Assembly (NCBI GenBank): GCA_023512255.1 | Contig: JAILZY010000003.1 | Span: forward strand, 29,400-93,399 | Source: a bacterium | GTDB taxonomy: Bacteria > SZUA-182 > DTGQ01 | Length of the DNA stretch: 64,000 nt | Direction: 5' to 3' | Shown here: piece after piece, positions 2,316 through 55,939 of the stretch | Numbering within the stretch: position 1 is the first letter of the stretch | Layout: the number at the start of each line of letters is the position of its first letter | Translations under genes and position numbers: made by a program | Notes under the pieces: generated by a model | Told to the model about the DNA's origin: nothing | The model's input: only the letters and a program-made list of their open reading frames with translations | The model's database searches: none

Positions 2316-2326
2316 TTAGTATGGTC

Positions 2327-2448
2327 GCTCTTATTTATTAGCTACCATTGAGAGACATAACCCTAATAAAGAGCTAAGCCCTTTCGAGGGTTTATGGTTA
2401 TTCTGATATAGGGTTTATGGTGTCTGATATATAAGAGCGAGTATGGTT
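2327..2448 (+). repeat. Family-2 MITE-like repeat copy 1 (~120 bp, terminal inverted repeats tcgctcttat.../...ataagagcga)
   Basis: More than 90 % identical to 40075-40195. It has an internal hairpin gccctttcgagggt and an internal direct repeat gggtttatggt..tctgatat. Confidence 0.75.
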
Positions 2449-6350: not shown

Positions 6351-8450
6351 CTATTTGCGGAAAAATCCCGGTCGAATCGAATTGATGAAGCATTCGTACC
6401 AGTGGTCAGCCTCTTTCTTGGAAGATGGAGGAGCTGTCGTGGTTGTTGTTGGCTGGGTCATTGCGGCTACCTCCTCTTCGGTTGCGGTAAACCAGCTACT
6501 CGTGTGCTTGGCAGATACCCTGGCAAACAGGAGGTTATTCCGGTATACGAGCTCGATGCGCTCGCCATGGGCCGTATTAGGAATAAATAGCTCGGGTGCT
6601 TTTCCGATCCGCTGGAAATAGATACCGTATCGCTTGGGGGCATTGGGGCCAGGCGCCTCATAGTCTGGCGAGGCCGGATTTTGCGACTGCTCGGTTATCA
6701 GCCGATTAGCGTAGATGTCATCGAGCGCCTTATCTTGGTCCTCCTGAGAAAGAGAATTGAATGTGGGATATGTATCTTGCAGGTATTTTTGAAGCCCTTT
6801 GTGCAAAGGAATCTCGATCACGATCGGACCGGCTGAAGCCCTTACATCTTCAGAAGGATCATACTCAAACGATTTTCCAGTTTCGTCAGTGAAATTGATA
6901 CTGACAATCGTGATATCGGATTTGTCCTGAAGCGGCTTGAGTTCAACCGCAAGATTAAAGCGGGTTGCAGCCAGCTTATTCGGATCAACATAGTTCTCCT
7001 GCGTACCCTTAAGATAGTTAAGGCTAATTTCGCTGGTATTAACCTCGGCTGATAGTTCACGAGAGGTAGTAGTATCAACGTAGAAGTTTCCATTGATCGT
7101 CATTGAGCCTACCGATTTGATTTCATTTCCGGTAAAGCTGTTGGTAATCTGGGCAATGCTTGCCTTGGTTACATCTACCGTTCCAGAGGTGGGTACATCC
7201 ACTTCTACCGTCGTCTTGAATTCATCGACATCATTAGGTTTATCGGTCGTGGTTTTAAAGGAAATGGTGTAGCGGGTATTACCTCCATTGGCCTCCCTTT
7301 TGACATAATATGATTCAGGATCAATAGTCATAAAAATATGCTTAATAGAGGGGCCAAACGATGTGTCAGTCTTAAATTGCGGTTGGTCGATAAAACCAGG
7401 GTAGTTGACTGAATTAGAATCGGCTGGAAACTCTACCCTCTGGCCGGTAGGAGTTGTCCCATCGCCTGGTTTGAAAAAGTGTAATATCATCTTGGTACTT
7501 TGGGGCCAATCCCCTATCTGACCATTCCAGTTTCTGTAGGCAAAGCGAAGCTCAAGTTTTTTGCTTGAGTTAATTTTTCGCACCAGCGCAATTCGCGACT
7601 TCATCTTGGTTACATTGATGGAATACTCAGCACCATCAGCTTGGTTAGCTGCTATATCAAGTTTCTTTAACTCACTCCGGTAACCATCGCTCTCCACTAC
7701 TGCCCAGTAAGTCTTGCCCGGCGGCAGATCGAACTCAGTACCATTAAGGTCAGTCATCGGGCCTATCTTGCGCTCCATCGTCCGGTCTGCATTCCATAGC
7801 CTGATGATATATGAACTTTCATCCCATGGTAAGGTGCTGTCACCAGAGCTAATAACAGGCTTAATCTTCACCTTACATAACTGCTCAACAAAATTGATCT
7901 TGACCGGAGTCGGACTCAATTCCTGAAGTAGGTTTTGCCCGACAAAGCCCTCGATAGTAACAAAAGTAACTCTCCCGGCTGCTACCTTACTGCCAGGCCC
8001 TTTATTGATGGTAAAGGGGAGGGTAAGGAAGCTCTCTCCGCTGGGCGTCCAAGTCTCAAGGTCATCGGAGCTATTCATTCCGACACAGGCACTGATCATG
8101 GCCATATTGGCTGGCCCTTCTTCACCGTCCTGCCTAATCAGTGGGTTTATGGCTACAAATAGTTTGTCGCTTGAGGCAATAGAGTTTGAATCAAGGTTAC
8201 CCAAAATCAAGTAATTCGGATCATAAGATATCTGGAGTGTAAAATGCTGAACCCCACTAGAAGGGGAAAACAGCAGGGGGATCTGAACCGTGGAATCAGA
8301 CGTTTTTACCTCCATTGACGGATTCTTACTGAGCAGGCAGTAGGTTGTCACTGCCTGACCAGGACTATAAGCCAACTGCAACATAAGACCTAAAATCACT
8401 GGTATCAGCCAAAATCTTAATTTAGCCAAGGATACATCCTCCTCTCTCAT
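6351..8450 (-). CDS. Large secreted hypothetical protein (699 aa, signal peptide, Thr-rich linker)
   Basis: A long ORF with an N-terminal hydrophobic signal, LIPVILGLMLQLAYS. No recognised catalytic motif. Confidence 0.7.
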   Translation of the reverse strand: MREEDVSLAKLRFWLIPVILGLMLQLAYSPGQAVTTYCLLSKNPSMEVKTSDSTVQIPLLFSPSSGVQHFTLQISYDPNYLILGNLDSNSIASSDKLFVAINPLIRQDGEEGPANMAMISACVGMNSSDDLETWTPSGESFLTLPFTINKGPGSKVAAGRVTFVTIEGFVGQNLLQELSPTPVKINFVEQLCKVKIKPVISSGDSTLPWDESSYIIRLWNADRTMERKIGPMTDLNGTEFDLPPGKTYWAVVESDGYRSELKKLDIAANQADGAEYSINVTKMKSRIALVRKINSSKKLELRFAYRNWNGQIGDWPQSTKMILHFFKPGDGTTPTGQRVEFPADSNSVNYPGFIDQPQFKTDTSFGPSIKHIFMTIDPESYYVKREANGGNTRYTISFKTTTDKPNDVDEFKTTVEVDVPTSGTVDVTKASIAQITNSFTGNEIKSVGSMTINGNFYVDTTTSRELSAEVNTSEISLNYLKGTQENYVDPNKLAATRFNLAVELKPLQDKSDITIVSINFTDETGKSFEYDPSEDVRASAGPIVIEIPLHKGLQKYLQDTYPTFNSLSQEDQDKALDDIYANRLITEQSQNPASPDYEAPGPNAPKRYGIYFQRIGKAPELFIPNTAHGERIELVYRNNLLFARVSAKHTSSWFTATEEEVAAMTQPTTTTTAPPSSKKEADHWYECFINSIRPGFFRK

Positions 8451-11063: not shown

Positions 11064-11747
11064 GGTTCCCCCTTAAATGTAAATATAATATAATTTTTAG
11101 ATTGATAAACAATGTGATACGCTTTTTCTCTCTCTATCTCACGGCTCACTCTGAAAAAAGGTTTTCTACCCTTCTTGCCCCTTTTATCAATAATATTCCA
11201 ATTCACCGCCATTGAATTTATACTCTTTATACATCCAGTTGTCAATAACTATCTTCTACTTGATATATTATTTGAATTCTCTTCTTGTACTTTCACCCCA
11301 CTCTCTTGGCTGTCAATCCTCATTTGATCAGGAAGAGCTGTCTGCTTATTTCTCTGACCTTCACCTCCTAGATAATGGACGTCATACTGCTTTTTGATTT
11401 GATTAACAGGTCAAAGAAGTAAATTTTTTGAGGAAAGTGTTTCTCGGAAAAATTTGCCAAACCTAGATCTTTTATCGGAGCAAAAGGTTAGTTTCATCGT
11501 GCATATACTTTTTCATTGCTTATGCTCAGGATGACCAAAAGTTAATAAGTTTCAATATTTCAATCAGTTACAAAAAATGAAAAAGTATAGAATCGTGGAA
11601 GTAAGGCTTTAAAAAAGCCTAATCGCTATATAACCAACCATAATGATTTATAACCTTCTAGCCAAATAATTATTTAACTTGTCTATCGCTACCTCATTAT
11701 GTCAAATTATAAACCTTTATGGTCAGGTACTTATCCAGCGCCCTTAC

Positions 11748-12428
11748 TCAGTCGCCAAAATAGCGGTCTGCCTGCTCGGTGATCTGATTCAGCCGAGCTT
11801 CCAGGAGCTTGCGCTTTTCTTCGATGGCCAGACGATCCTCATCTGCACCAACCCATATCGGATCACCGAAGATAAATACCCCTCTAGCAAAGGGATAGGG
11901 AATGAAAAACCGGTCCCAGGTTGATAAAAATTTTCCTCGGCACGCACTGAAAGCCACCGGCACAAGGGGACAGCCGCTCAGGCGGGCCAGGAGGATGGCT
12001 CCGCTTTTGGCCTGCTGCCGTGGTCCCCTCGGTCCATCGGGAGCAATAGCCGCCTGAGAGCCTCTCTTTAGCTCTCTGGCAAGCTCCCGCAGGGCAGCTA
12101 CCCCGTGCTGGCTGCTTGATCCCCGGACCGAATAATAGCCAAAATAGCGGATAATCCGACTGATCAGCTCTCCATCTCCATGCTGGCTGATCATCACTAC
12201 TGCCCTTCGGCCAAGGCAGACCAGGGGCATCATCAGCAGCCGTCCATGCCAGAAGACATAGATGACTGCACCTCCCCTAGACCATAAATCATCGACCTTT
12301 TCCCTTCCGATCCACACCTTGCGCAGCGTCAGCCCTAAAACCCTAATCAGCCAAGCCCCAAGCCAGGGAAAAAGCTCAAGATTGAGCAGCCTTTTTTTCC
12401 ATTTTTTCCGAATCGTCTTCCAGCTCAC
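11748..12428 (-). CDS. DUF374/lysophospholipid-acyltransferase-like protein (lipid A operon member)
   Basis: Carries the VFWHGRLLMMP and IAPDGPRGPR motifs. It is translationally coupled (4-nt overlap) to lpxB. Confidence 0.7.
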   Translation of the reverse strand: MSWKTIRKKWKKRLLNLELFPWLGAWLIRVLGLTLRKVWIGREKVDDLWSRGGAVIYVFWHGRLLMMPLVCLGRRAVVMISQHGDGELISRIIRYFGYYSVRGSSSQHGVAALRELARELKRGSQAAIAPDGPRGPRQQAKSGAILLARLSGCPLVPVAFSACRGKFLSTWDRFFIPYPFARGVFIFGDPIWVGADEDRLAIEEKRKLLEARLNQITEQADRYFGD

Positions 12429-13774
12429 CGCTCAAGCATCTCCATAACCACCTCAGCGGCCCGAGCAGCGCTTCCCGGCTCACCCAGTCGGTCCCTGATC
12501 TTTCGCAGCTCCCGGCGCATGTGCTCACGCCGCTTTTGATCCTGCAAAATCTCCATAGCCAGAGAGGCGATTTTGTCTGCGTTAGCCTGATATTGAATCA
12601 ACTCAGGAACGATTTTCTTCTCAGCCACCAGGTTGACCAGCCCGATATAAGGGACCCGAATCAGCATTCTCCCCAGGATATAGCTTAGCAGGGAGAGCCT
12701 ATAGACCAGAATCATTGGGGTATTTAAAAGAGCGGTCTCCAGGGTAGCTGTGCCTGAGCTGACCAGGGCCAGATCAGCTACCCGGAGAATATCGTAGGTG
12801 CAGCTCTCTCGGCAGTGAATGGTAACTGATGGATATCGACGAAGATAGGGCTCGACTACAGAGGGTTTGATCGTGGAAGCTAGGGCCAGCAGAAACTGAA
12901 GATCAGGTTTTTGCCTGATGAGCTTTTCGGCTGCTCCCAGCAGTTGAGGTAAAATCCGTGAGATCTCACTTTTTCGACTGCCCGGCAAAAGGGCAATGAT
13001 CGGCCTTTTCGGATCAACGCCCAGACGGCGGCAAATCTCTTCCCGCATACTCGCAGACTCTGCCGGCTGTCTGCGGCTGTCTGACTGAGGCGACTCAGCC
13101 GACTGTGGCTCTTTTGGCTCTGCTCCTCTCCCTGGGGCTAACGCCAAGGGGTAGGGATTAATGCTCTCCATGCTAGGCTCTATCTCTCTTGGCTCTATCT
13201 CTCTCCCTGGGGCTATCTCTCCCCCGATCACATCCATCAGCGGATGGCCGATGAACCGCACATCCAGGCCGCATCCCTGGTATAGTGGAAGCTCAAAGGG
13301 AAAGATCACCAGCAGGGTATCCACAGTGCGAGCAATGGTCTTTATCCGCCATCTTCGCCAGGCCCACACCTGCGGACTTATATAGTAGAGCACCTTGATA
13401 TGCTCACGTCTAGCCACCTTAGCCAGACGGAGATTGAAATCAGGATAGTCGATCAGAATCAAAAGATCAGGCCGCTTGGTTCGAATGAATTGACACAGAG
13501 AGCGAAAGGTCTGCCGGATGGCCCGCCAATGGAGCATAACCTCGCCAATGCCAACCACAGCCAGATCATCAATGCGGCGGAGCAGCCGCACTCCCACCTC
13601 CTGCATCCTGCTGCCGCCGATGCCAAAAAGCTGCGCTGCCGGGAGCCGCTCCAGGATCTGCCTGGCCAGATTGGCCGCGTGCAAGTCACCGGAAGCCTCA
13701 CCGGCTACCATGAGAATCACTGCTGACGATGAGGTAGAACGCTCTTCTATAGCCACTCCTCCAGGCTTTGGCAA
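12425..13774 (-). CDS. lpxB: Lipid-A-disaccharide synthase LpxB, with a ~70-aa low-complexity insertion
   Basis: The N-terminal motif [15 protein letters not shown] is the LpxB signature. The insertion contains [10 protein letters not shown], encoded by tandem ctctatctctc repeats around 13150-13230. An alternative start is at 13711. Confidence 0.85.
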
Positions 13775-15920: not shown

Positions 15921-16001
15921 TGGTGCATCCTGAAAAAGATATTTTATTTTAAATAATTTAAATAAATCTAAAAATTTAATTATTAAAATAAATCTAAGAA
16001 T

Positions 16002-16848: not shown

Positions 16849-18144
16849 CTATTTCGCCAACCGAGCGAATACCGTATGGGCTGCGGCTAAAGTTCGTTCG
16901 ATATCTTCATCTGAATGGGCCAGAGAAACAAAAACCGCTTCAAACTGTGATGGCGGCAGATAGATCCCCTCTTCCAGCATCCCCTGAAAATAGCGGGCAA
17001 ACATCTCCTGATTAGACCGAAGGGCAGAGGCATAGTCGGTAACCTGCTCTTTGGTAAAAAAGAGAGTAAAGATCGAGCCTGCCCGATTCATCGACACCTC
17101 AAGCCCAAAAGCCCTGGCCGAGGCCAGAAGCCCATTAGCCAGCCGCTCTGCTCTTTCCTCAAGTTGCCGGTAAACTTCCGGTGAGGACAGAAGCTTCAAG
17201 GTGGCTAAGCCAGCGGCCATAGCCAGGGGATTCCCGGACAAGGTCCCGGCCTGATAGATCGGCCCCAATGGAGCCAAAAATTGCATGATCTCTTTCTTGC
17301 CGCCAAAGGCACCTACTGGCAAGCCGCCGCCGATGATTTTCCCCAGACAGGTGAGGTCTGGTTTGATATGGTACAGCTCCTGGGCTCCTCCCTGACTCAA
17401 CCTAAAGCCACTTATAACCTCATCAAAGATCAGGACAATATCATGCCTTTCAGTCAACTCCCGCAGGTCTTCAAGAAATCCCTTGCGGGGAAGAATCACG
17501 CCCATGTTTCCAGGCACAGGCTCTACAATGATACAGGCAATATCTCGGCGAAAGTCCTGAAGAACACGGCTTACCTGATCAATATCGTTAAATGGCAAGG
17601 CAATCGTCTGATGAGCCAAACTGGTAGGAATACCACCACTAGTGGGGACCCCCAGGGTTGTCGCTCCCGAGCCAGCCTTAACCAGCAAGCTGTCTACATG
17701 GCCATGATAGCACCCTTCAAACTTGATAATCTTATCACGGCCCTTATATCCTCTGGCCAGGCGAATGGCGCTCATGACCGCCTCGGTTCCAGAGTTAACC
17801 ATCCTGACCTGCTCGATTGATGGAAACCTCTGGCAGATGAGCTGAGCCAGCTCAACTTCCAGGCTGGTCGAAGCCCCAAAGCTCAACCCATTTTCCGCCG
17901 CAGCCTGAATCGCCCGCACCACCTCCGGATGAGCATGCCCCAGGATCATCGGCCCCCAGGAGCCTACATAGTCAATGTATTCATTGCCATCAACATCGTA
18001 AATCTTTGATCCACTAGCCCGGTCGATAAACAGAGGATTTCCCCCTACTGCCTTGAAAGCTCGAACAGGACTATTGACCCCGCCCGGGATGTGCTTCTGG
18101 GCTTTTTCAAACCAATACTTTGATTTTTCTGTAACTTTTCCCAT
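16849..18144 (-). CDS. hemL: Glutamate-1-semialdehyde 2,1-aminomutase HemL
   Basis: Has the [10 protein letters not shown] motif and a PLP-lysine region. The start is set at MGKVTEK; the ORF track extends it to 18180. Confidence 0.9.
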
Positions 18145-18399: not shown

Positions 18400-18548
18400 T
18401 AAGGTGGTCTTTTCGCTAACAAAGTGCGCAAGCTGGGGGCGAACACAAGGGCCGCCCCTACAATTAGCTTATCCGCCCCTTCAATTTATAGCGTAATTGA
18501 TCCGCTGCGCACTTGTGTTAAGCACTTGGCGAGAAAACCACTTAAGAA
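18400..18548 (-). repeat. Family-1 repeat element copy A (~130-150 bp, imperfect ~30-bp terminal inverted repeats, conserved core cgtaacacaagttgcgcagcggatcaattacgctat)
   Basis: This is the reverse complement of the copies at 37580-37700 and 46578-46705. It lies about 250 bp upstream of hemL. Confidence 0.8.
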
Positions 18549-18672
18549 AGCTAGCCTGAAGTATGTAGGCAAATGGGCAGCGCGCCTTACTTGAGGCGAG
18601 GCTAGAAGCAACCAAATGTCGAGTTATAAACCTTTATGGTCAGGCATTTAGAAGAATAAAGCGGGGAAGATG

Positions 18673-19500
18673 TCAGCCGTAATACTCTTCTTCAACCCGC
18701 AGAATATATTCTTGAGTCTCTTTTGGCAAGGCCTCTGGACGGCTTTCAAGATTGCCCATGCCCCAGTTGTAGGCAGCCAGGGCAAGCCTCAAATTCCCCT
18801 GATAGCGGTCAAGCAGACGGCGCAGGTAGCATGTCCCCCCCCTGATGTTCTGAACAGGATCGAAGGGATCAGACACTCCAAGCTCAGCCGCAGTAGCTGG
18901 CATAAGCTGCATCAGCCCCTTAGCGCCAGCCGGTGATACGGCCTTTGGGTCCCAATTGCTTTCAACCGCAATAATCGCCCTGACCAGCGCTGGATCAAGG
19001 CCATATTGGTTTGAAAATCTTGTGATAATCCCCTCAAGATCATAACTTCCCATAAGGTAAGGCTTATCCGGATGTTCCTCATCTTTTAGGGGAGATTTCG
19101 AAGTCTCCCATACTTTCCTTGCGGCAGTATTTAATCTTTCCGTCTGTGGTAAGATAGTCAGCTCCCTCTTCTCTTGCCCTAAAGAGGAGATCGGCCACGG
19201 CAAAGATGAAAAGGCTGCCTCTGCTATCGTCGGCAAATACGATTCTCTGCCTTTTGCTCTAGCCAGAATCATCTCCAAAGTCTTTGAGAGAAGCTCGATG
19301 GCCGCAAGCTCTAGCGGCCTATCCCCGCCGGCCTGATCAAGTAGGGAATCCCGAAGGATCGCTCCAAAGTCAGAGCATCCTACCCCTCCTTGCTGCCTTA
19401 ACCATCCCCCCGTTGTCCCTTGCGCGGCCAGATGACCAATGATTGCCCTCGAATTGATCTTGTTTACCATACCCCTGACAACCTCGCAAGACTTACTCAA
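18673..19500 (-). CDS. Lytic transglycosylase (SLT domain) family protein
   Basis: The C-terminal motifs AIIAVESNWDPKAVSPAGAKGLMQLMPATA are SLT-domain catalytic motifs. Confidence 0.85.
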   Translation of the reverse strand: MSKSCEVVRGMVNKINSRAIIGHLAAQGTTGGWLRQQGGVGCSDFGAILRDSLLDQAGGDRPLELAAIELLSKTLEMILARAKGRESYLPTIAEAAFSSLPWPISSLGQEKRELTILPQTERLNTAARKVWETSKSPLKDEEHPDKPYLMGSYDLEGIITRFSNQYGLDPALVRAIIAVESNWDPKAVSPAGAKGLMQLMPATAAELGVSDPFDPVQNIRGGTCYLRRLLDRYQGNLRLALAAYNWGMGNLESRPEALPKETQEYILRVEEEYYG

Positions 19501-21715: not shown

Positions 21716-22058
21716 AAACTACCTCCTGGATATATGTACGGGGATATATGTCGCGTACGGATATAATTGTTTAGTGTATGGATATAATTGTGTAGATGTT
21801 GTTTCTGAAATTTAAAAATTAGATTCCATCAGCAAACTGCGCTGCCCCTTTTCTTTTTTTCGACCTTTCACTTCACAAACATCGGGGGTATCTGAGCTAA
21901 GTTTTCCCTGTCCAGAGAATTTCGGCCTTTAACTGTCCAGCCGTTGAGGAAATAAACAAAAGTGCAGTGCAGCCCAAAATTTAACCTTGATTTTAACATA
22001 AAAAATGGAAGATAATCTAGGCAAATCTCATTATCTTAAAAATAATGGAGGCTTGACC

Positions 22059-23751: not shown

Positions 23752-23880
23752 TGGTTGGAAGGAACCCTTTTGAAAAAGGGTTCCTTCCAAACCATCCTCC
23801 TAAAACTTTAATAGCTAGGCTATTAAAGTTTTAGGAAAAGGGTGATAAGGGGAAAACCCTTTTTCAAAAGGGTTTTCCCC
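23752..23880. promoter_or_regulatory. Three consecutive perfect palindromes (17-bp stems) in the divergent intergenic region
   Basis: P1 23752-23788 is ttggaaggaaccctttt-tg-aaaagggttccttccaa. P2 23797-23833 is cctaaaactttaatagc-tag-gctattaaagttttagg. P3 23845-23880 is aaggggaaaaccctttt-tc-aaaagggttttcccctt. Confidence 0.7.
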
Positions 23881-30269: not shown

Positions 30270-30495
30270 AAGCTCAACCCCTCTGCTCGCTCGCGCGGGG
30301 GCTTTTTATCTCTCGACCCATTCAACCCCTCCCTGAACGCCCTCTGCTCGCTCGCGCGGGGGCTTTTTACGAACCACGAATGAACACTAATTCACACAAG
30401 CTCAACCCCCTGCTCGCCCGCTGCGCGGGGCGTAGGTTTTAGCAGGTCAAGCTGGCATATGGCGCTCAACCCCTCTGCTCGCTCGCGCGGGGCTT
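30270..30495 (+). repeat. CRISPR-like mini-array: 4 degenerate direct repeats (~29-30 bp, consensus gctcaacccctctgctcgctcgcgcgggg) at a 60-68 bp period, no cas genes
   Basis: Repeat cores are at 30279-30308 and 30339-30368 (identical 30-mers), 30399-30430 (variant) and 30464-30492. The spacers are unique and 22-38 bp long. Confidence 0.45.
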
Positions 30496-30523
30496 GTGGT
30501 AATGCACACCCCAAAGTGGCCAG

Positions 30524-34134: not shown

Positions 34135-34626
34135 ATGGACATGGACAATGATGATCTACGGCTCCAGCTCAATGAACTCAAGAAGCATACCTTCTACGAA
34201 TTACTCAATCTAGCTGGCAGGGTCTATATTCTGGTCAAATATTCCGAAGGGGTGATTATAGGTACCAGGGGCTTTCTCCCCGAGGAGAAAGAACACGGCC
34301 TGGTTCTGGTCTTGAATACCAAGATGAATTTCACCTGGGACGAGGAGGGGATTTCAGTCAAGCTGGTCTTTGGAGAGACCCCGCACAAGTGTTTTATTCC
34401 AGCTGATAATATCCTGGCTATCTATTCCCCTGAATTGAACTCACAGCTCATCATAGGGCCACAGCAGGCCGCAGAAGCCAATACTGCTTCGCTCAAGAGC
34501 CAAGGGAGAGCCTCAAAAAGGGGAGCCAAAGGGGCCGACAAGGTGAGACTAGAGCCTTCATGTGATGGGGAGGACAACAGGAAAAACAAGGTTGTCCGAG
34601 TTGATTTTCAGAAGAAGAAAAAATAA
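34135..34626 (+). CDS. sspB: ClpXP adaptor SspB-like protein
   Basis: Aligns with E. coli SspB: TFYELLNLAG...ILAIYSPE versus AFYEWLLDNQ...VLAIYAREN. It has a basic C-terminal tail. The start is at the MDMD codon after a gggaga RBS. Confidence 0.55.
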   Translation: MDMDNDDLRLQLNELKKHTFYELLNLAGRVYILVKYSEGVIIGTRGFLPEEKEHGLVLVLNTKMNFTWDEEGISVKLVFGETPHKCFIPADNILAIYSPELNSQLIIGPQQAAEANTASLKSQGRASKRGAKGADKVRLEPSCDGEDNRKNKVVRVDFQKKKK

Positions 34627-35350
34627 CCTTATCCGCAAAACCGGCCAGGCGATTGCTGATTTTCATCTAATTCAAAGCGGTGATAACATCCTGCTCGCCC
34701 TCTCAGGAGGGAAAGACAGTCTGGCCCTGCTTGAAATCTTGCTTTATCTTCAAAGAAAGGCTCCGGTTAAATTTTCCTTAACTGCCTGTACCATTGATGA
34801 AGGCTTTGGAGGCTTTCAAACCGAGCGGATCGCTGATCATTGCCGTCAAAGAAAAGTACCCTTTATCCTGAGGAAGGGAAAAATCCTGGATATCCTCCAG
34901 GAAAAGAATCTCTCTGGCCCTCATTTTTGTTCCCTGTGCGCCAGGCTGCGCCGGGGAACCCTCTATACTCTTGCCCGAGAGCAGGGATTTAACAAAATCG
35001 CCCTGGCTCACCATGCGGATGACTTTATCGAAACGCTCCTGCTCGATCTCTTCTATGCAGGATCATTCTGGAAGATGCCGGTTAGTCTGGCCTCCGAACG
35101 CCGGAAAGAGGTGGTTATTCGGCCTCTGGTCTATGTCTATGAGGAGGAGATTGAGCGCTTTTGCCAAGATCAAGACCTTGTTCCCATTCCTCACCCCTGT
35201 CCCTTTACTGAGGGAGGTTTTTCCCACCGAAGCCGAATTAAGCAGTGGCTGAAAGAGTTGTCCAAGACCAATTCGGCGATCAAGGGGAACCTGCTGAGCG
35301 CAGTTATCAGGGGGCAAAAGACCGAAGCTTGTGCCAAGCAGCAGTTTTAA
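34562..35350 (+). CDS. ttcA: tRNA 2-thiocytidine(32) synthetase TtcA (PP-loop ATPase)
   Basis: PP-loop SGGKDS and the Cys motif CSLCARLRRG. The listed start overlaps sspB by 65 nt; the true start is uncertain. Confidence 0.8.
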   Translation: MMGRTTGKTRLSELIFRRRKNNLIRKTGQAIADFHLIQSGDNILLALSGGKDSLALLEILLYLQRKAPVKFSLTACTIDEGFGGFQTERIADHCRQRKVPFILRKGKILDILQEKNLSGPHFCSLCARLRRGTLYTLAREQGFNKIALAHHADDFIETLLLDLFYAGSFWKMPVSLASERRKEVVIRPLVYVYEEEIERFCQDQDLVPIPHPCPFTEGGFSHRSRIKQWLKELSKTNSAIKGNLLSAVIRGQKTEACAKQQF

Positions 35351-35863
35351 ACCCACCCCTAAGTCTAGGGACGGCCCTTTGTGGTCGCCAAAATTGCGCT
35401 ATTTTTTAGCAAAAAACCATTTAGCATGATATCTAATAAATGATCGAATATATATAAAAATGTATATAAAAAGAGATGAAATGTATATAATATAGGTATA
35501 TAATATAGGTGAGGACATGAGTAAAAGCTCAAACATTGGGTATATAACATAAGGTAATAAAAAAGTTTTCCAGGTAGTCAAAAAATAAATTCGTGCCGAT
35601 TCATTCTCTTGAGAGATAGCTTGAAGGATAAGTAAGTAATAAGTAAGTAAGATGTTTACTGACGGGAGAGAAAAAGAGGTATGGCAACATACCCAGTGGT
35701 TAACCACCGAACCAGATAAATCTTGCACCGTGGCTTTTGAGCAGCAGACTCAAGGAAGAGCAGTAGACTCAAGGAAGATGGGGGTAAACGGGCGAGATCA
35801 ACGATTCTCAAGGGATAATAAACTTATTTTTCCCCTTGAGATGTTTAAAGAGGAGAGATAAAA

Positions 35864-36160: not shown

Positions 36161-37579
36161 ACTCCTCTCGAATTCTCCTTATATCAAAAGATACCTTCCT
36201 TGGCTAAAGCAAGCTAAGAGTTTATCTTAGGCTGATAATTTCTTGCCCCCTATAAACGACGGTTTTTGGAATAACTCTTCTAATCTTAAAGTGAGCACTC
36301 ATTACAGAGGGTATCTTCATCCGCGACTTGACAAAAGGGGCAGGATTGGTAAAAGTTATAGTTAATACTGTGGTCATTTTCTACCGTTCCTGCTAACACT
36401 AGCGGCTCTATCTTGCTGACTTTTAACATTGTGTCTAACATTGTGTAAAGATTATTCTCTTCCCTCTCCGTATAGGTATTCTTCTCTTCACTCCCTAATG
36501 GATATGCCTGGCCCATTATACTATACTCTCCCTTGGCCTATACTGTGCTATTTCTAAGGATACTCTCTCTTAATCTATTTTTCTTGCTTTTAACCATACA
36601 ACTCACTCCCCATATAATGCGGGTGCTGGTATCGAGTCGCTGGATTCCCCCCTCTCACTCACTTCCCGCAATACGGGTTGTGAAACTCTCCGCAAAGAAA
36701 ACTTTTATTAATCCATAGGCTACTCACCCCCTGCCATTAGTTTCTTGCCAAAAGGCGCTCTTACGGTATTGACAGAGAAACACTCTTCAAGCCTAAATAG
36801 AGAAAGCTTCCACTATAGCGGTAGGGATACTGTTGCCTTCTTTAGAGCTTCCAGGAAACCTAAGATTAATCAACAGGTTTTGTGGAAACTATTAATAGCT
36901 GTACTGGATGAATAGAGTATCAGCCAAAGAATAACAGAGCTGAAAAATGACAACTGGCAGGAACAATTCGCTATCCCCCCTATTTTATTCCCCTTTTTTA
37001 CTCCCCCTATCTGGCGGCATTCTTTATATAATGCAATAATCGTGCCTCGCTCATAACTTGCTCTCTATTTAAGAGATTGTCGTTGTAATATAGGCAATTA
37101 TTTAATAGTTACAATTTTTCACCATTACTATATTATTAATTAGACAATGAAATAGTTTTCATATTTATGATTTATAACATATTGTTAACTCAGAGTATTA
37201 TATCATTTTACAGATATCTTATCGGTTATGAAATTTTTTTCCTATTCAGCTATCAGCCTTTTCTTATCTTCAACGCTTAAGCAGGGGCAGCTTTTTTAAG
37301 GCCTTTCATTTTCTCTTCTGAAGCTGTCCTATATATGACGAAGGGTTTTAAATAAATTTATCATTTCATCTTTTCTGGGATTTATCTGGTTTTTCCCTTA
37401 AAAATTTTAGACGGACATTCTATCGCCTGCCTTACACCGATTACCCATTTTTGTCCTATGCACTTCGTATTTCGATGACAGGTCCGCTATGGTCGTCTAT
37501 TCCTTTATTGCTGCCAGAAATACCTTGGCCATAAACTCTGGGCTGAAACTGTTCTTTCATCTTCATCCCTCCTTACCTT

Positions 37580-37700
37580 AGTGGTCCTCTCGCTAAGTAC
37601 GTAACACAATTGCACAGCGGATCAATTACGCTATCAACTGTAGGGGCGGCTCTAAGGGCCGCCCAAATTGCGCACTTTGTTAGCGAAAGAACCACTTAGG
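37580..37700 (+). repeat. Family-1 repeat element copy B
   Basis: Shares the core cgtaacacaattgcacagcggatcaattacgctatcaactgtagg and the flanking arms gtggtcctctcgctaag / cgcactttgttagcgaaagaaccac. Confidence 0.8.
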
Positions 37701-37921
37701 ATCGTTCTGGTATGCCTGGGATGAATCTTGACACTGGTCCGAAAATCCTGTCTATATGCTCTTCTTTTTTATTTGTCTCGATCCTAGCAGTAGTGCCTGA
37801 TAATTGGCAGACGCTATATAAGGTCACTATACCCGTAGTAAAATGTCAGCGAGTAGTTTAATAATAATAAAAACAAATTGTTATCGAGCTATTCTTTTGT
37901 ATATTTTCCTTCTATCAATCC

Positions 37922-37937
37922 TGGCACACCCCTTGCA
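37922..37937 (+). promoter_or_regulatory. Sigma-54 (-24/-12) promoter TGGCAC-N5-TTGCA upstream of glnK-amtB
   Basis: Exact match to the consensus GG-N10-GC spacing, about 100 bp upstream of the glnK ATG. A sigma-54 activator is encoded in the window. Confidence 0.7.
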
Positions 37938-37986
37938 TCAAAATATAGTAAAAAAGAAAGAAATGTTTTCTTTCTTAAGTTATTAA

Positions 37987-38379
<393 letters not shown>

Positions 38380-38399
38380 CTAATATAAAGGGAAGAACA

Positions 38400-39938
38400 A
38401 TGAAAAGGCAAAAACTTATAGCTTATTTCTTTCTGGCATTCTTTTTCCTATGTATATCAATATGCACCTCAGGTAAGGTTCTGGCTGCCAGCGATCCGGT
38501 CGGAACAGCGACAGGTAAGGCGGCTGACCTTGGAGTTGATGCCGGTACCCTGACGATAGGGAAACTGGCTGATTTTGTTGGCCATAATACGATCTCCATC
38601 AATTTCATGTGGTTGCTGCTGACCGGCTTTTTAGTCATGTTTATGCAGGCCGGATTCGCCTTGGTAGAGACCGGCTTCTGCCGGGCCAAGAGTGCGGCTG
38701 AAACCATGATGATGAATTTTATTGTCTATGCCATTGGTATGACTGGCTATTGGATCTGCGGCTATGCACTGCAAATGGGAGGCGTCGGAGGTTTTGCCTC
38801 GTTAGGCGGAGGAGCTGCCCTGAGCAAGGAGATCACCATCACCCTGTTTGGGAAACCTTTTGGTCTCTTTGGTGGAACGGGCTTTTTTCTAGCAGGAGCA
38901 TCCTATGACGTAGCCATATTTGCCATGTTCCTCTTCCAGATGGTATTTATGGATACAGCTGCGACCATTCCCACCGGAGCTATGGCTGAGAGATGGAAGT
39001 TCTCGAACTTTTGCATATTCGGACTATTCATGTCCATGCTGATCTATCCCCTTTACGGCAACTGGGTCTGGGGCGGAGGATGGCTAGCAAAACTGGGAGA
39101 AAACTTCGGCCTTGGGCACGGTATGGTAGACTTTGCCGGCTCTTCGGTTGTTCATTGCGTGGGAGGTACAGCTGCACTTGCCGGAGCTATAGTCCTGGGG
39201 CCCAGGGTTGGGAAATATAATAAAGATGGGACTCCCAATGCCATACCGGGACACGATATCCCAATGGCCATTCTAGGGACCTTCATCCTGGCCTTCGGCT
39301 GGTTCGGATTCAACCCAGGCAGCACTCTGGCTGGTGTGGACCTGCGGCTGGCAGTGGTAGCGGTCAATACCATGCTAGCTTCAGCAGCCGGAGCCCTCAG
39401 CGCCATGCTTTACATGTGGTATACCACCGGCAAACCCGATCCTAGCATGTCCGCCAACGGCATGCTGGCCGGCCTAGTGGCCATCACCGCCCCCTGCGCC
39501 TTTGTCAACAGCATCTCTGCCTTTATCATCGGCGCCATAGCTGGAGTGCTGGTCATCTGGAGCGTATACTTCGTGGAGCGAGTCCTTAAGGTGGATGACC
39601 CGGTAGGAGCGGTTTCAGTACACGGAGTCAATGGAATCTGGGGATGCCTGGCTTTGGGAATCTTTGCCGACGGCAAATATGGTGCAGGTTGGAATGGTGT
39701 GGAAGGGACCGTACGGGGTCTTCTCTATGGCGATGCCTCACAATTTATAGCCCAGTTGATTGGCTGCCTGGTCTGTTTTACTTTTGTCTTCGTCAGTTTC
39801 TATGCATTCTTCAAGATCAGCGACCTTCTAGTCGGAATCAGAGTAAGCAAAGAGACGGAAATCGAAGGGCTGGACATCCCTGAAGTTGGAGCCCTTGCCT
39901 ATCCTGATTTTCAAACAATAGTATCTTCTGAATTATAA
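38400..39938 (+). CDS. amtB: Ammonium transporter Amt
   Basis: Amt signature DFAGSSVVHCVGG and the DTAATIPTGAMAERWKF motif, with multiple TM segments. Confidence 0.9.
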   Translation: MKRQKLIAYFFLAFFFLCISICTSGKVLAASDPVGTATGKAADLGVDAGTLTIGKLADFVGHNTISINFMWLLLTGFLVMFMQAGFALVETGFCRAKSAAETMMMNFIVYAIGMTGYWICGYALQMGGVGGFASLGGGAALSKEITITLFGKPFGLFGGTGFFLAGASYDVAIFAMFLFQMVFMDTAATIPTGAMAERWKFSNFCIFGLFMSMLIYPLYGNWVWGGGWLAKLGENFGLGHGMVDFAGSSVVHCVGGTAALAGAIVLGPRVGKYNKDGTPNAIPGHDIPMAILGTFILAFGWFGFNPGSTLAGVDLRLAVVAVNTMLASAAGALSAMLYMWYTTGKPDPSMSANGMLAGLVAITAPCAFVNSISAFIIGAIAGVLVIWSVYFVERVLKVDDPVGAVSVHGVNGIWGCLALGIFADGKYGAGWNGVEGTVRGLLYGDASQFIAQLIGCLVCFTFVFVSFYAFFKISDLLVGIRVSKETEIEGLDIPEVGALAYPDFQTIVSSEL

Positions 39939-40074
39939 TATTGATATACTATAATTTTACACTTTCCGTCATTCCTGCGCAAGTGCAGAATCCACAAGAC
40001 CTTGATATTATCGGATTATCGCTTTCGTGGGAATGACGGGGGTGGTTAATACAAAATTTCAATATCTTAAAACA

Positions 40075-40195
40075 TTTCGCTCTTATTTATTGGCTACCAT
40101 TGAAATACATAACCCTAATAAGAGCTAAGCCCCTTCGAGGGTTTATGGTTGTTCTGATATAGGGTTTATGGTGTCTGATATATAAGAGCGATTCA
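40075..40195 (+). repeat. Family-2 MITE-like repeat copy 2
   Basis: Near-identical to 2327-2448. Confidence 0.75.
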
Positions 40196-42788: not shown

Positions 42789-45700
42789 TTAATGTGGTGG
42801 ATATTCAAGTTTGGCCAGCTGCTCGTAAATATGGAAGCGGCAGTTTACATCCCTCTGAGCTAGCTCAAGGAGCCGTCTGGCCTCATCAGGTTTAGTTTTG
42901 GTCAGCATCTTATATCGATTTTCCAGATAGGCGTACTCTTCCAGGGGAATCTGGGGCGGTTTGGAATCAAGGATGAGGGGATTTAGTCCCTCCTTGAGGC
43001 GATCCGGGTTAAAGCGAAACAGATTCCAGTAGCCACTGTTCACGGCTGCCTTCTGGTTAGTCAGGGCCAGGCTGGTATTGATTCCCTGACCAATACAGTG
43101 GCAGTATGCGATTATCATAGAGGGGCCGTCATACTGCTCAGCCTCGACCAGTGCCTTGACGGTTTGCTGATCATCAGCCCCAAAGGCCACCTTGGCTACG
43201 TAGACGTAGCCATAGGACATAGCCATCATAGCCAGATCCTTTTTGGGCAGATACTTCCCGCCGGCAGCGAACTTAGCCACAGCAGCCCTTGGGGTTGCTT
43301 TGGACATCTGGCCGCCAGTATTGGAATAGACCTCGGTATCAAGGACCAGGAGATTGACATTCCGCTTGGCGGCAAGGACATGGTCCAGGCCATCGAAATC
43401 AATATCATAGGCCCAGCCATCTCCGCCCACGATCCAGACGACCTTTTTGACCAGATAGTCAGCTAGACTCTCCAGATGCCTGACTTCAGGCGATTGGAGC
43501 AGTTTCAATTTCTCCCTGAGCACCTTGACCCGCTCCCTTTGATCAGCAATTTCCCGCTCATTGTTTTGAGGCGCCTCCAAGATAGCCGAAGCCAGCCTGT
43601 CGCCTACCTTTCCGGCTAGCCGTTGCAATAAGGCTCTGGCCTGCTGAGTGTGCTTGTCAATAGCCAGACGCAGGCCAAAACCAAACTCAGCATTATCTTC
43701 AAACAGGGGATTGTTCCAGGCCGGCCCTCTGCCTTCACTGTTCTTGGTCCAGGGCGTGGTTGGCAGATTCCCACCATAGATGGATGAGCAGCCTGTGGCA
43801 TTGCCGATAACTGCTCGATCACCAAACAATTGGCTAATTAGCCGCAAGTACTGGGTTTCCCCGCAGCCGGCACAGGCCCCTGAGTATTCAAAGAGTGGCT
43901 GGAGGAATTGGACTCCCTTCACGGTGCTGATGTTGATTCTGGTTCTATCCGGGTCAGGGATGCTCAGGAAAAATTCATAATTTTTCGCCTCTTCCTCCCG
44001 CCGTGGGAGCTGGGGATAAAGGTTAATGGCCCGCAGCCTGGTTTCTTTTTTATTTTTGGCAGGACAGGCCTGAACGCACAGACCGCAGCCAGTGCAATCT
44101 TCTGGGGCCACCTGGACGGTGAATTTCATACCTGCGAAATCCTTCCCCTTATAATCTGCTGACTTGAAGCCCTTCGGTGCTCCGGCCAGGTATTGAGGAT
44201 CATAAACCTTAGTTCGAATGGTAGCATGGGGGCAGACAAAAGAGCAGCAGTTACATTGAATGCAGACCTCAGGATCCCAGACCGGAATCTGTAGGGCGAT
44301 GTTTCGCTTCTCGTATTGACTGGTGCCAGAAGGGTAGGTTCCATCAGCAGGCATGGCACTGACTGGAAGCTCATCTCCCCGGCCAGCTATTATTTTAGCC
44401 ACTACTCGGCGCACAAATTCGGGAGCCTCCTTCGGGATCAAGGGCTTTTTCTTCATGCCCTGGGCAGAGCTTTCTTGAGGAGTGGTGCTCTCGGCGGCTT
44501 CGGCCTCTGCTGTCTCCTCCTCAGCTAGGATTGGCGGTCGGTCGAAGGTAGCGGTAACTTTATCCGGTATTGGCACTTGGTAGAGATTGGCCAGGGCATG
44601 ATCTACTGCTTTGAAATTCATCTGGACAATCTCTTCACCCTTTTTCCCATAGCTTTCCCAAATCGCCTCCTTGATTTTGGCTATAGCCTCATCCCTGGGG
44701 AGAACACCGGAGATAGCGAAAAAGCAGGTTTGCATAATGGTATTGATCCTAACCCCTAATTGGCATTCCTTGGCTACCTTGAAAGCGTCGATGGTGTAAA
44801 ATTTCATTTTCTTATCGATAAGCTGCTGTTGATCTGAGCGGGGAAGGGTATCCCAGACCTTATCAGGGCCAGCCGGGCTGTTTAGTAGAAAGGTAGCTCC
44901 TTCACTTGCTGCAGACAGCATATCGTAGCGCTCGAGAAATACCGGCTGGTGGCAAGCAATGAAATTGGCCCGCTGAATTAGGTAGGAAGAGTGGATCGGC
45001 TTTTTCCCGAACCGAAGATGGGAAATTGTTACTGAGCCGGCTTTTTTTGAGTCGTAGACAAAATACCCTTGGGCATAGTTGTCGGTTCCCTCACCAATGA
45101 TCTTGATGCTATTTTTATTGGCACTTACCGTGCCATCAGCTCCAAGGCCATAGAAAATGGCTCGGATTGTATCCTCGCTCTCAATGGTAAATGAGGGATC
45201 ATAGTCAATGCTGGTGTGGGTAAGATCATCATTGATGCCGAGGGTAAAATGATTCTTAGGCCGATCTTTTTTCATTTCCTCAAATAGGCCAAGGATCATG
45301 GCCGGAGTGAACTCTTTGGAGCCGATGCCGTATCGTCCGCCAATGATTTTAGGCAGAGAGGAGAAAGGGGCTGTGCCATCAGCTATAGCTTCATAAACTG
45401 CGGCGATCACATCGAGGTAGAGCGGCTCGCCAATGCTGCCCGGCTCCTTGGTTCGATCAAGCACAGCTAAGGTCTTTGTGCTTGCTGGCAGAGCCTTAAT
45501 AAAATGCCTGATAGAGAAAGGGCGATAGAGATGTACCCTAACCAGACCAACCCTCTCTCCCCGATCAACCAGCCAGTCTACGGTTTCCTGAACTACTTCA
45601 GCCCCAGAGCCCATGAGGACGATAATCAGCTCGGCATCGCTCGCACCATGATAGTCAAACAGGTGATAGTGCCTGCCGACCAGGTCAGCGAAGCGGTCCA

Positions 45701-46439
45701 TGGTTTTTTGGACAATATCAGGGCAGGCCAGGTAGTATGGATTGGCGGCCTCGCGGCTTTGAAAATAGACATCAGGGTTTTGGGATGTCCCTCTGATGAA
45801 GGGATTATCCGGTGAAAGTGCTCGGCTTCGGTGGGCTAGAACCAGATCATCATTGATCATGGCAGAGAAGTCATCTCGGCTGAGCTGCTCGATTTTATTT
45901 ATCTCGTGAGAGGTGCGAAAGCCATCGAAAAAGTGCAAAAAAGGCACTCGTGACTCTAGGGTAGCTGCCTGGGCAATTAGGGCAAGGTCCATAGCCTCCT
46001 GAACCGAGCCGGAAGCCAGTAAGGCAAAGCCTGTAGCTCTGGCGGCCATGACATCGCTATGATCGCCAAAAATGGACAGTGCCTGGCAGGCAATGGATCG
46101 GGCGGCAATGTGGAACACGGTCGGGGTTAGTTCTCCAGCAATTTTATACATATTGGGGATCATCAGGAGTAGCCCCTGTGAAGCGGTAAAGGTGGTACTT
46201 AGGGCGCCGGCCTGCAAGGCTCCATGGATAGCTGCCGCGGCTCCTTTCTCGCTTTGCATTTCATTTACTACCGGCACGATTCCCCAGATATTGGTTTGTC
46301 CTGCCTCAGACCATTCATCGGCCAGCTCGGCCATGGGCGATGAGGGAGTTATCGGATAAATCGCGATGATTTCATTCGTTTGATGAGCCACATAGGCCGC
46401 AGCCTCATTGCCATCAATGGTTACCATTCGCCTAGCCAT
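42789..46439 (-). CDS. nifJ: Pyruvate:ferredoxin (flavodoxin) oxidoreductase, single-polypeptide NifJ/PorA type
   Basis: 1216 aa. The N-terminus is MVTIDGNEAAAYVAHQTNEIIAIYPITPSS. It has two 4Fe-4S ferredoxin CxxCxxCxxxCP motifs and the TPP-binding motif GDGW. Confidence 0.95.
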   Translation of the reverse strand: MARRMVTIDGNEAAAYVAHQTNEIIAIYPITPSSPMAELADEWSEAGQTNIWGIVPVVNEMQSEKGAAAAIHGALQAGALSTTFTASQGLLLMIPNMYKIAGELTPTVFHIAARSIACQALSIFGDHSDVMAARATGFALLASGSVQEAMDLALIAQAATLESRVPFLHFFDGFRTSHEINKIEQLSRDDFSAMINDDLVLAHRSRALSPDNPFIRGTSQNPDVYFQSREAANPYYLACPDIVQKTMDRFADLVGRHYHLFDYHGASDAELIIVLMGSGAEVVQETVDWLVDRGERVGLVRVHLYRPFSIRHFIKALPASTKTLAVLDRTKEPGSIGEPLYLDVIAAVYEAIADGTAPFSSLPKIIGGRYGIGSKEFTPAMILGLFEEMKKDRPKNHFTLGINDDLTHTSIDYDPSFTIESEDTIRAIFYGLGADGTVSANKNSIKIIGEGTDNYAQGYFVYDSKKAGSVTISHLRFGKKPIHSSYLIQRANFIACHQPVFLERYDMLSAASEGATFLLNSPAGPDKVWDTLPRSDQQQLIDKKMKFYTIDAFKVAKECQLGVRINTIMQTCFFAISGVLPRDEAIAKIKEAIWESYGKKGEEIVQMNFKAVDHALANLYQVPIPDKVTATFDRPPILAEEETAEAEAAESTTPQESSAQGMKKKPLIPKEAPEFVRRVVAKIIAGRGDELPVSAMPADGTYPSGTSQYEKRNIALQIPVWDPEVCIQCNCCSFVCPHATIRTKVYDPQYLAGAPKGFKSADYKGKDFAGMKFTVQVAPEDCTGCGLCVQACPAKNKKETRLRAINLYPQLPRREEEAKNYEFFLSIPDPDRTRINISTVKGVQFLQPLFEYSGACAGCGETQYLRLISQLFGDRAVIGNATGCSSIYGGNLPTTPWTKNSEGRGPAWNNPLFEDNAEFGFGLRLAIDKHTQQARALLQRLAGKVGDRLASAILEAPQNNEREIADQRERVKVLREKLKLLQSPEVRHLESLADYLVKKVVWIVGGDGWAYDIDFDGLDHVLAAKRNVNLLVLDTEVYSNTGGQMSKATPRAAVAKFAAGGKYLPKKDLAMMAMSYGYVYVAKVAFGADDQQTVKALVEAEQYDGPSMIIAYCHCIGQGINTSLALTNQKAAVNSGYWNLFRFNPDRLKEGLNPLILDSKPPQIPLEEYAYLENRYKMLTKTKPDEARRLLELAQRDVNCRFHIYEQLAKLEYPPH

Positions 46440-46577
46440 ATACTCTTGATCCTCCAGTTTTTTCTCAATAAAAACTATACTTTTGCGGAAAATTTCTAAA
46501 AACTACACTCTTCCGGTAAAATTTCATGGTTTTTCATGAAAATTCATCCCTTCATCCAAAGCCATCGGTTAGCGCTA

Positions 46578-46705
46578 AGCGGTTTTTTCGCCAAGTGCGT
46601 AACACAAGTTGCGCAGCGGATCAATTACGCTATCAATTGTAGCCTGCGGACCTTGTGCCCCGCCGGCGGCTTGCGCTAACTTTGTTAGCGAAAAGACCAC
46701 TCAGT
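46578..46705 (+). repeat. Family-1 repeat element copy C
   Basis: Core gcgtaacacaagttgcgcagcggatcaattacgctatcaattgtag with the terminal arm ttgttagcgaaaagaccac. Confidence 0.8.
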
Positions 46706-47157: not shown

Positions 47158-47231
47158 GCGCCCATGGCTCAGTTGGATAGAGCGACGGACTACGGATCCG
47201 TAGGTCGGGGGTTCGAATCCCTCTGGGCGCA
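47158..47231 (+). tRNA. tRNA-Arg (anticodon ACG)
   Basis: Hand-folded cloverleaf: acceptor GCGCCCA/TGGGCGC, anticodon stem ACGGA/TCCGT with loop CTACGGA, T-loop TTCGAAT, discriminator A. CCA is not encoded. Confidence 0.9.
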
Positions 47232-47243
47232 CTTAATAAAAAC

Positions 47244-47286: not shown

Positions 47287-47377
47287 GGGCATGTGTGGCG
47301 GTTTTTAAATTGTCTAAGCCAGTTTTCTCCTCCAGGATTTTCATGGCATTTTGTTAACGAAAAAACCACTAATTTTG

Positions 47378-51626: not shown

Positions 51627-52219
51627 TTAGGGTCTGTCCGAAATTGACTAACTTATTGACAATATTATGTTAATTAGTATTATTACAGGTAAGAGTTCGT
51701 AACCATTTGAAATAATTATTAATTTTTCATCTATTTCATCCGATTTTTAACGAGTTTCTGTTCACTTATATATATGTGTCTGTTACCTATATATTTGATT
51801 TTGCTCATTATAGGTGTAATCCCAAAAGTCATTTTTTCGGACAGACACTAGTTAGGGGCAAGGCAAAAGCTTTAGAAATAGGGAACTTGCGGCTGCGGTG
51901 GAGTAATAGGGTAGTGGGCAAATATCGGCAAAAAATTTTGATATTTCTCTTTACCTTGGGTTTTGATTTTGATATACTGATTTTTCAAAATAAAAATTCA
52001 GAGAAGATGATGATCTATAGGTCATCGATCAGGCTGGTCAGAACATTGACCGTCTAACCATACTTTTGTCCATATTTTCCATGAAAAAATCCGAAGTATA
52101 TAGTTCGAAATATTTTATGCCAAAATATTTTGTTTTGAATTAATTAAAAATTAATCCAAAAATATTTTAATAAATAGCTGGCAAGTTTTATTATTCAGAA
52201 GGGAAAAGGGGGAAATTTC

Positions 52220-55771: not shown

Positions 55772-55939
55772 AGTACATACCTCCCTTTTCCAAAACATCC
55801 CACAAACTAGAAGGAGGAGCAGGGAGCGAGGTTTATCACATCGCTTAAAGCCCCCAACCTTCGCCAAGAAAACAGCAGCTTAGGGTGAATTTATCTTCAC
55901 CTTACCCTTGTTTTAAAAGGGTAGCTTCTGGCCTTAGTC

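Follow-up and report, generated by a model that had tools for sequence, protein, structure and literature searches.

Each of three gene neighbourhoods in the 64-kb stretch of DNA analysed here, which we call the window, carries one full copy of the same short element: e1 beside hemL, e2 beside glnK-amtB and e3 beside nifJ/PFOR (Table 1). Gene names in the window were confirmed by Pfam, and tRNA-Arg by a match at the Rfam gathering threshold. The copy e1 lies between the stop of an SLT transglycosylase gene and the hemL promoter, a strong sigma70-like TTGACA-18-TATGAT at 18264-18235 that falls outside e1 and is conserved in a sister species that lacks the element. A partial copy of a ~68-nt repeat adjoins e1 just past the SLT gene stop and is kept in close strains. 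e2 sits 342 nt upstream of glnK, and a sigma54-like box, TGGCAC-N5-TTGCA (~37922-37937), follows 226 nt past the end of e2. The nifJ and tRNA-Arg genes are divergent, and e3 occupies the spacer that separates them, 136 nt ahead of the start of nifJ. An upstream block (TAGCAGTAGTGCCTGATAATTGGCAGAC, 37785-37815) and the sigma54-like box are both conserved in the sister species and both outside e2, an arrangement that would be expected under NtrC/sigma54 control of glnK; homology with the sister species in this upstream region begins at 37763, 63 nt downstream of e2. On the minus strand, a small open reading frame of 34-36 codons (37466-37575), with AAGGAGG as a strong ribosome-binding site, has its start only a few bases away from the e2 5′ end; no counterpart was found upstream of sister-species glnK.

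Table 1. Positions of genes, element copies and second-family copies (window numbering unless a contig is named).
Feature	Position	Strand	Remarks
hemL	16849-18144	minus	
SLT transglycosylase gene	18673-19500	minus	
glnK	38041-38379		
amtB	38400-39938		
nifJ/PFOR	42789-46439	minus	
tRNA-Arg	47158-47232		
e1	18404-18541	minus	138 nt, inverted repeat to inverted repeat; flanks 5′ cTTAA and 3′ CTTA, a TTA repeat only with a 1-nt offset
e1 5′ inverted repeat	18541-18521	minus	
e1 core	18520-18479	minus	
e1 additional 21-nt module	18478-18458	minus	single unit, GGGCGGATAAGCTAATTGTAG
e1 GC hairpin	18458-18436	minus	
e1 3′ inverted repeat	18431-18404	minus	
e2	37581-37695	plus	37578-37698 with duplication; original target C-TTA-G
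e2 left TTA	37578-37580	plus	
e2 5′ inverted repeat	37581-37601	plus	
e2 core	37602-37643	plus	
e2 GC hairpin	37644-37664	plus	GGGCGGCTCTAAGGGCCGCCC
e2 3′ inverted repeat	37668-37695	plus	
e2 right TTA	37696-37698	plus	
e3	46579-46700	plus	46576-46703 with flanks
e3 left TAA	46576-46578	plus	
e3 5′ inverted repeat	46579-46599	plus	starts GCGG, not GTGG
e3 core	46600-46642	plus	
e3 GC centre	46643-46670	plus	decayed
e3 3′ inverted repeat	46671-46700	plus	
e3 right TCA	46701-46703	plus	
Degenerate half copy	35359-35423	plus	hairpin and 3′ inverted repeat; ~75% identity to 3′ half of e2
Relic 3′ end	47348-47373	plus	ATTTTGTTAACGAAAAAACCACTAAT; 81% to e2
Second MITE family	2326-2439		~115 nt, ends CGCTCTTAT...ATAAGAGCG
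Second MITE family	40078-40190		as above
Second MITE family	L028:8623-8737		as above

Anatomy of the element

The first-pass annotation had described three elements with terminal inverted repeats, a near-identical 45-nt core and a GC-rich centre, all upstream of genes, and had suggested a MITE or a small structured RNA or regulatory element. All three lie where it placed them, and they share one order of parts: 5′ inverted repeat, core, GC-rich hairpin, 3′ inverted repeat. Pairwise identity among e1, e2 and e3 is 72-77% over the whole element and 86-93% in the core, so the common core stands while 'near-identical' was loose wording; the 45-mer quoted is the e3 version. The core spans ~43-45 nt (family consensus AGCGGATCAATTACGCTATCAATTGTAG; window-copy form TAACACAAGTGCGCAGCGGATCAATTACGCTATCAATTGTAG). 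The window contains exactly three instances of an 18-mer from the core, GCGGATCAATTACGCTAT, where 0.01 would be expected, and likewise three of the 26-nt 3′ end (at most two mismatches), where none would be expected.

The terminal inverted repeats are borne out as a 16-bp helix with a 5-bp GTGCG/CGCAC extension (consensus GTGGTTCTTTCGCTAAGTGCG ... GCGCACTTTGTTAGCGAAAGAACCAC; degenerate ends 5′ GTGGTyyTyTCGCyAAGTrCG and 3′ TTGCGCACTTTGTTAGCGAAArrACCAC). Across 20 copies the end helices are 83.5-100% paired, compared with 42-54% in slid controls. The GC-rich centre, too, is present, and it forms a hairpin with a stem of 8-10 bp in three palindromic variants: GGGCGGCCC-TTA-GGGCCGCCC, GGGGCGGAC-CTTGT-GTCCGCCCC and a third whose loop is the reverse complement of that of the second. 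One of these variants is inverted relative to the element ends. An internal module of ~21 nt varies from zero to three units per copy across the family. Copies measure 104-186 nt, with a dimer of 273 nt; they are 10-30% diverged, and the family may therefore be inactive by now. Only mechanical open reading frames (56 and 79 aa), not common to the copies, overlap e1 and e3.

Three features go beyond the earlier description: a degenerate half copy, a relic 3′ end and the 3-nt flanking repeats considered below. The half copy begins 9 nt past the stop of a PP-loop (TilS-like) gene (34562-35350). The relic is kept in strain L028, where it is interrupted by a copy of the second MITE family. With these, the family amounts to three full and two partial copies in the window.

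Target sites and mobilisation

The GTGG...CCAC ends of the element are flanked by 3-nt TNA direct repeats (TTA, TAA or TCA), which are perfect at 12 of the 19 sites identified across the window and related contigs, and carry one mismatch at a further five, so that the check for target-site duplications proposed in the first-pass annotation has a positive outcome. TTA lies on both sides of e2, L014, L019, L023 and L026b; TAA flanks L017, L021, L025, L024c and L015b, as well as e3 in the 98%-identical strain L028; and TCA flanks L013. L015b is counted as perfect with its boundary corrected by 1 nt, the uncorrected score being 11 of 19. The middle base of the triplet agrees on the two sides in 17/19, the two exceptions being two versions of one hemL site. 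An identical but variable triplet, directly repeated on both sides, indicates a target-site duplication rather than an extension of the inverted repeat, which would pair TTA with TAA. C precedes the triplet in 13/19 and G follows it in 12/19, indicating a preferred target of CTNAG. The element has G as its first base and C as its last, so that CTNAG is restored at both junctions whenever a copy inserts, which explains the head-to-tail dimers with one common TNA described below.

The family thus has the structure of a MITE, in its size, its inverted repeats, its constant target duplication and its dispersed copies. The 3-bp TNA duplication suggests that the element was mobilised in trans by an IS5-family (IS1031-like) DDE transposase; the IS1031 subgroup of IS5 is described as preferring TNA and generating an exclusively 3-bp direct repeat (PMC12016507). 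In favour of a partner outside IS5, for example of the IS630/Tc1-mariner type that duplicates TA, most copies have TA in their flanks, and the assignment to IS5 is drawn from the duplication. A TA duplication, however, needs a 1-base shift of the boundary between TTA-type and TAA-type copies and cannot explain the TCA/TCA copy L013, whereas TNA with an exclusive 3-bp repeat is the signature described for the IS1031 subgroup (PMC12016507). We therefore consider a non-IS5 partner unlikely.

With an IS1031-like enzyme, a transposase supplied in trans would bind both inverted repeats and the element would be inserted into a palindromic C-TNA-G target, of which the central TNA would be duplicated. 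The CTNAG recreated at both junctions could then receive a further insertion, yielding head-to-tail dimers with a single TNA. The mechanistic detail of note is that ends which rebuild the preferred target would favour such dimers.

When the window and ~0.4 Mb of related contigs were searched for an autonomous partner, no pair of element ends 0.7-2.5 kb apart (at most three mismatches) and no IS-sized repeat came to light. Likewise, Pfam detected no transposase domain in 20 open reading frames of the window, and no transposase gene was found in the ~0.4 Mb of related contigs. The partner search yielded only MITE copies and a short variant family with the same ends around a different interior (L024:12249-12352, flanked TAA/TAA), which suggests that one enzyme serves several MITE families.

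Distribution and differences between strains

Metagenome contigs were scanned with the degenerate 3′-end pattern, and an nhmmer profile was then run on all retrieved loci. The pattern scan returned 16 stretches, all from four JGI samples, three of which were also shown to carry close strains. By nhmmer the family occupies 19 independent sites on ~15 contigs of one species-level population, several of them with extra diverged or partial copies; the call for further copies in the first-pass annotation is thereby answered, with contigs of strains 96-98% identical to the window. These strains come from JGI 3300005573, 3300009503 and 3300027863, two ENA assemblies and Logan runs. The sister species, GCA_040755755.1, is 89% identical in HemL, 86% in NifJ and ~80% in DNA; the next named protein matches are 65-68% identical and scattered over several phyla.

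Outside this population, the exact 20-mer core gave two chance matches in Bacteroidota coding sequence when compared with one genome per GTDB species (a set that does not include the source genome and its close relatives), and blastn against plasmids gave a single chance match of 22 nt. The 5′-end pattern matched viral contigs 17 times, with none confirmed by the family profile, and no copy was present in the 91 kb sampled from the sister species. Within the collections searched, a single species-level lineage carries the family.

All 19 sites are intergenic. Copies occur in both orientations, upstream of genes, downstream of them and in convergent or divergent spacers, frequently 3-40 nt past a stop codon. 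The placement upstream of genes reported earlier therefore holds for the three window copies and not for the family, in which many copies lie past stops or between convergent genes.

Close strains differ at two of the window sites. At hemL, where the window has one copy, L004-L009 carry two, of 170 nt and 113 nt, linked through TTA(A); at nifJ, L028 carries e3 and an internally deleted second copy joined by TAA. A third head-to-tail dimer with a common TNA is found in L025. The 98% strains thus have 'one and a bit' or two copies at hemL and nifJ against a single copy in the window. This difference could reflect a second insertion or a deletion or recombination between tandem copies, both of which fit; under either route the two loci change on the time scale of strains. 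The sister species has no element at the orthologous hemL, nifJ and glnK sites, where the spacers are too diverged to give a precise empty site. Among the strains compared, the family gave no clean filled/empty pair, in which one strain would have a single CTNAG where another has a copy; for e2 such a site was sought through AmtB relatives, a comparison that covered the sister species.

The MITE suggested earlier is favoured by the inverted-repeat ends, the TNA duplications and the dispersal over at least 19 intergenic sites, and also by the variation in copy structure between strains and the lack of copies at the orthologous sister-species sites. We conclude that the three sequences are very probably copies of one MITE family, that is, of non-coding, non-autonomous DNA transposons of 104-186 bp.

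Dispersed repeats of this kind are expected to break short-read assemblies, and two Logan contigs of SRR15214128 behave accordingly. The whole of L003 is 100% identical in DNA to window 37670-40136, and it begins inside e2; L032, which encodes an identical NifJ protein, ends within e3. Short-read contigs of SRR15214128 also break inside copies of the second MITE family.

That second family is marked at 2326 by an 8-bp duplication, AGTATGGT, and has a clean filled/empty pair: the L028 copy is flanked by AACGAAAA, and the window has a single AACGAAAA at 47357-47364. At least ten further sites are present in related contigs, one of them nested in a copy of the first family (L025, ~7685-7816). Just past a peptidase M10 gene, the window carries an insertion of ~225 nt (51624-51850) that is missing in L028; it has ends GGGTCTGTCCGAAA... 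and ...TTTCGGACAGAC, is flanked by a 15-nt direct repeat, GTTAGGGGCAAGGCA, and is probably a third small mobile element. L006 and L007 (12156-12259) hold an insertion of ~105 nt, with ends CTATGCTTTTGCA... and ...TGCAAAAGTGTAG and a duplication of AGATTTA, between permease and glycosyl-hydrolase genes; the window (15989-15995), L004 and L005 have the empty site.

Other repeats in the window are of several kinds. The ~68-nt repeat mentioned above (…TATGTCAAATTATAAACCTTTATGGTCAGGTACTTA…) is present in 2.5 copies, 87-89% identical, at 11666-11733, 57290-57357 (inverted) and 18616-18650. CCCTCTGCTCGCTCGCGCGGGGGCTTTTTA occurs three times within 220 nt (30279-30500), a 52-nt repeat containing a hairpin follows two genes (1463-1514 and 23825-23876), and an AT-rich cluster of direct and inverted repeats (500-740) lies upstream of a SatD-like gene at 777. 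At 55061-56917 and 57805-62175 lie two adjacent genes that contain short tandem codon repeats at the DNA level, and a 1456-aa open reading frame that has internal repeats of ~250 nt. Two strain-level indels stem from tandem duplication and do not involve a mobile element: one of 166 nt in L005, where lpxB meets DUF374 (L005 15747-15912 compared with window 12281-12447), and 48 nt of ACAATTATATCC-type repeats present in the window at 21746-21795 when compared with L004.

Alternative readings and known systems

The structured-RNA reading, in which a small RNA gene or a cis-regulatory RNA (a leader, stabiliser or terminator) is repeated before hemL, glnK-amtB and nifJ, draws on folding. Each copy folds far better than shuffled sequence (z -2.6 to -8.2, on either strand), most copies retain the GC-rich hairpin, and in a few hairpin pairs both partners have changed between subfamilies (C:G against A:T, 6 against 5 copies). 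The inverted repeats alone, however, suffice to account for the strong folding. In the 20-copy alignment, pairing over the end helices and hairpin was 83.1% compared with 82.8% in column shuffles (202 of 500 shuffles equalled or exceeded the observed value), and the covariation score was 0.130 compared with 0.133 (286/500), indicating that substitutions are not compensated beyond chance. The compensated hairpin variants could have been inherited from distinct master copies, or the palindrome could take part in transposition, and an RNA function is not needed to account for them.

Rfam gave no match to the element at gathering or permissive thresholds; the best scores inside the elements had E values of 1.5-4.9, and only tRNA-Arg reached the gathering threshold. 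Summed hairpin stability is nearly equal on the two strands (-335 and -314 kcal/mol). G-U pairs number 17 and 12 on the respective strands, and a comparison of G-U with A-C revealed no clear strand bias, giving no sign of selection on one RNA strand. The copies, moreover, lie in mixed orientation relative to adjoining genes, e1, e2 and e3 contain nothing that resembles a promoter or terminator, and the orthologous sister-species sites lack the element. Without an Rfam match, covariation beyond shuffles or strand asymmetry of the hairpin, and with both orientations represented and the promoters outside, the structured RNA or regulatory element put forward in the first-pass annotation is not upheld, and we judge an RNA reading to be exceedingly unlikely.

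Another possibility is co-option, in which the core or hairpin of the MITE would serve as a binding site for a host regulator or nucleoid protein and so link glnK-amtB, nifJ and hemL. The stretch CAGCGGATCAATTACGCTAT of the core is exact in all three window copies and well conserved family-wide, and the three window copies are all upstream of genes. At the 19 sites, however, the adjoining genes are unrelated, and many copies lie past stop codons or between convergent genes. The hemL promoter and the glnK box with its upstream region stand outside the element and persist in the copy-free sister species, and a conserved core would be expected of a subterminal transposase-binding region or of inheritance from a master copy. 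Co-option linking these genes is accordingly very improbable. The apparent link to the 5′ regions of hemL, glnK-amtB and nifJ arose because only three copies were looked at, and the copies there are best read as tolerated insertions just outside promoters, not as a shared regulatory device.

The core and hairpin are nonetheless at least as conserved as the ends, which a plain 'junk' model does not require. The well-kept core (CAATTAC...ATCAATTGTAG) and GC hairpin may represent functional cargo, either a site for a host factor or nucleoid protein or a DNA hairpin used in an unusual transposition step, although we hold this to be highly doubtful. Were it true, the MITE would distribute a working cis element beside genes such as glnK-amtB, nifJ and hemL.

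The GC-rich palindrome, the intergenic position often just past stop codons and the whole-element hairpin potential would also suit a REP/REPIN-like palindrome moved by RAYT (HUH), or an IS200/IS605-type palindrome-associated element, in place of a DDE-moved MITE. Elements of the REP/IS200 type, however, insert without target duplication or beside a fixed tetra- or pentanucleotide, whereas here the two flanks repeat a variable TNA; the element is bounded by long inverted repeats (~21 bp) and not by REP units, and the GC hairpin pattern was never found outside the element. Such an origin is extremely improbable. An attC-like recombination site was also considered and rejected: GTTAGCG/CGCTAAG does not fit GTTRRRY/RYYYAAC, and the copies are dispersed and not in cassette arrays.

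The family is therefore best described as a new MITE family of a familiar kind, which will not surprise a specialist in mobile elements, and it is useful chiefly for annotation and assembly. It and at least two further MITE families of the window explain intergenic breaks in short-read contigs, and annotators should not read the repeat as a shared nitrogen or redox regulatory element.

Correia elements (CREE) of Neisseria, which measure ~100-155 bp, have inverted repeats of ~26 bp, internally deleted variants, an intergenic position and whole-element hairpin potential, duplicate TA and carry an IHF site, with documented promoter and RNase III effects. The present family resembles them in size and variant structure and differs in that TA duplication and the IHF, promoter and RNase III features are not seen here; the sequences are unrelated. 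REP, BIME and REPIN sequences are likewise GC-rich intergenic palindromes, often just downstream of stop codons, but they lack long terminal inverted repeats and target duplication and are moved by RAYT, whereas the hairpin here occurs only inside the element. BrickBuilt, a MITE of Porphyromonas gingivalis, has IS5-family-like ends, an internal minisatellite, ~19 copies and sites filled or empty between strains (PMC4596501). An internal repeat array is shared, as zero to three units of the ~21-nt module in the present family. BrickBuilt, by contrast, is far longer, differs in sequence and makes target duplications of variable length and composition, whereas here TNA is uniform, the target is CTNAG and a GC hairpin is present.

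In kind, the family also resembles IS1031-type MITEs derived from IS5, which are likewise short, non-coding and intergenic, with inverted repeats, a few tens of copies per genome and the 3-bp TNA repeat described for the IS1031 subgroup (PMC12016507). The ends quoted for IS5-family elements in the literature consulted (GAACCTGTCTAGTATCT; GAGACCTTTGCAAAA) do not match the inverted repeat GTGGTTCTTTCGCTAAG found here, the host belongs to an uncultured lineage, and no IS5 partner with matching ends was found. In eukaryotes, inverted repeats of 14-25 bp are found in PIF/Harbinger and Tourist elements, along with a TTA/TAA duplication and an IS5-like transposase (PMC2213677). The 3-bp TTA/TAA duplication is common to both, whereas their G(N)5GTT inverted-repeat motif is absent here and the sequences are unrelated. 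In maize, the palindromic target favoured by PIF/mPIF contains CTTAG, the same core as the CTNAG of the present family. An IS5-family enzyme of the IS1031 type would be the bacterial counterpart of the PIF/Harbinger-Tourist system, and the work adds a bacterial family, from an uncultured lineage, with the TNA/CTNAG signature of IS5 and PIF/Harbinger.
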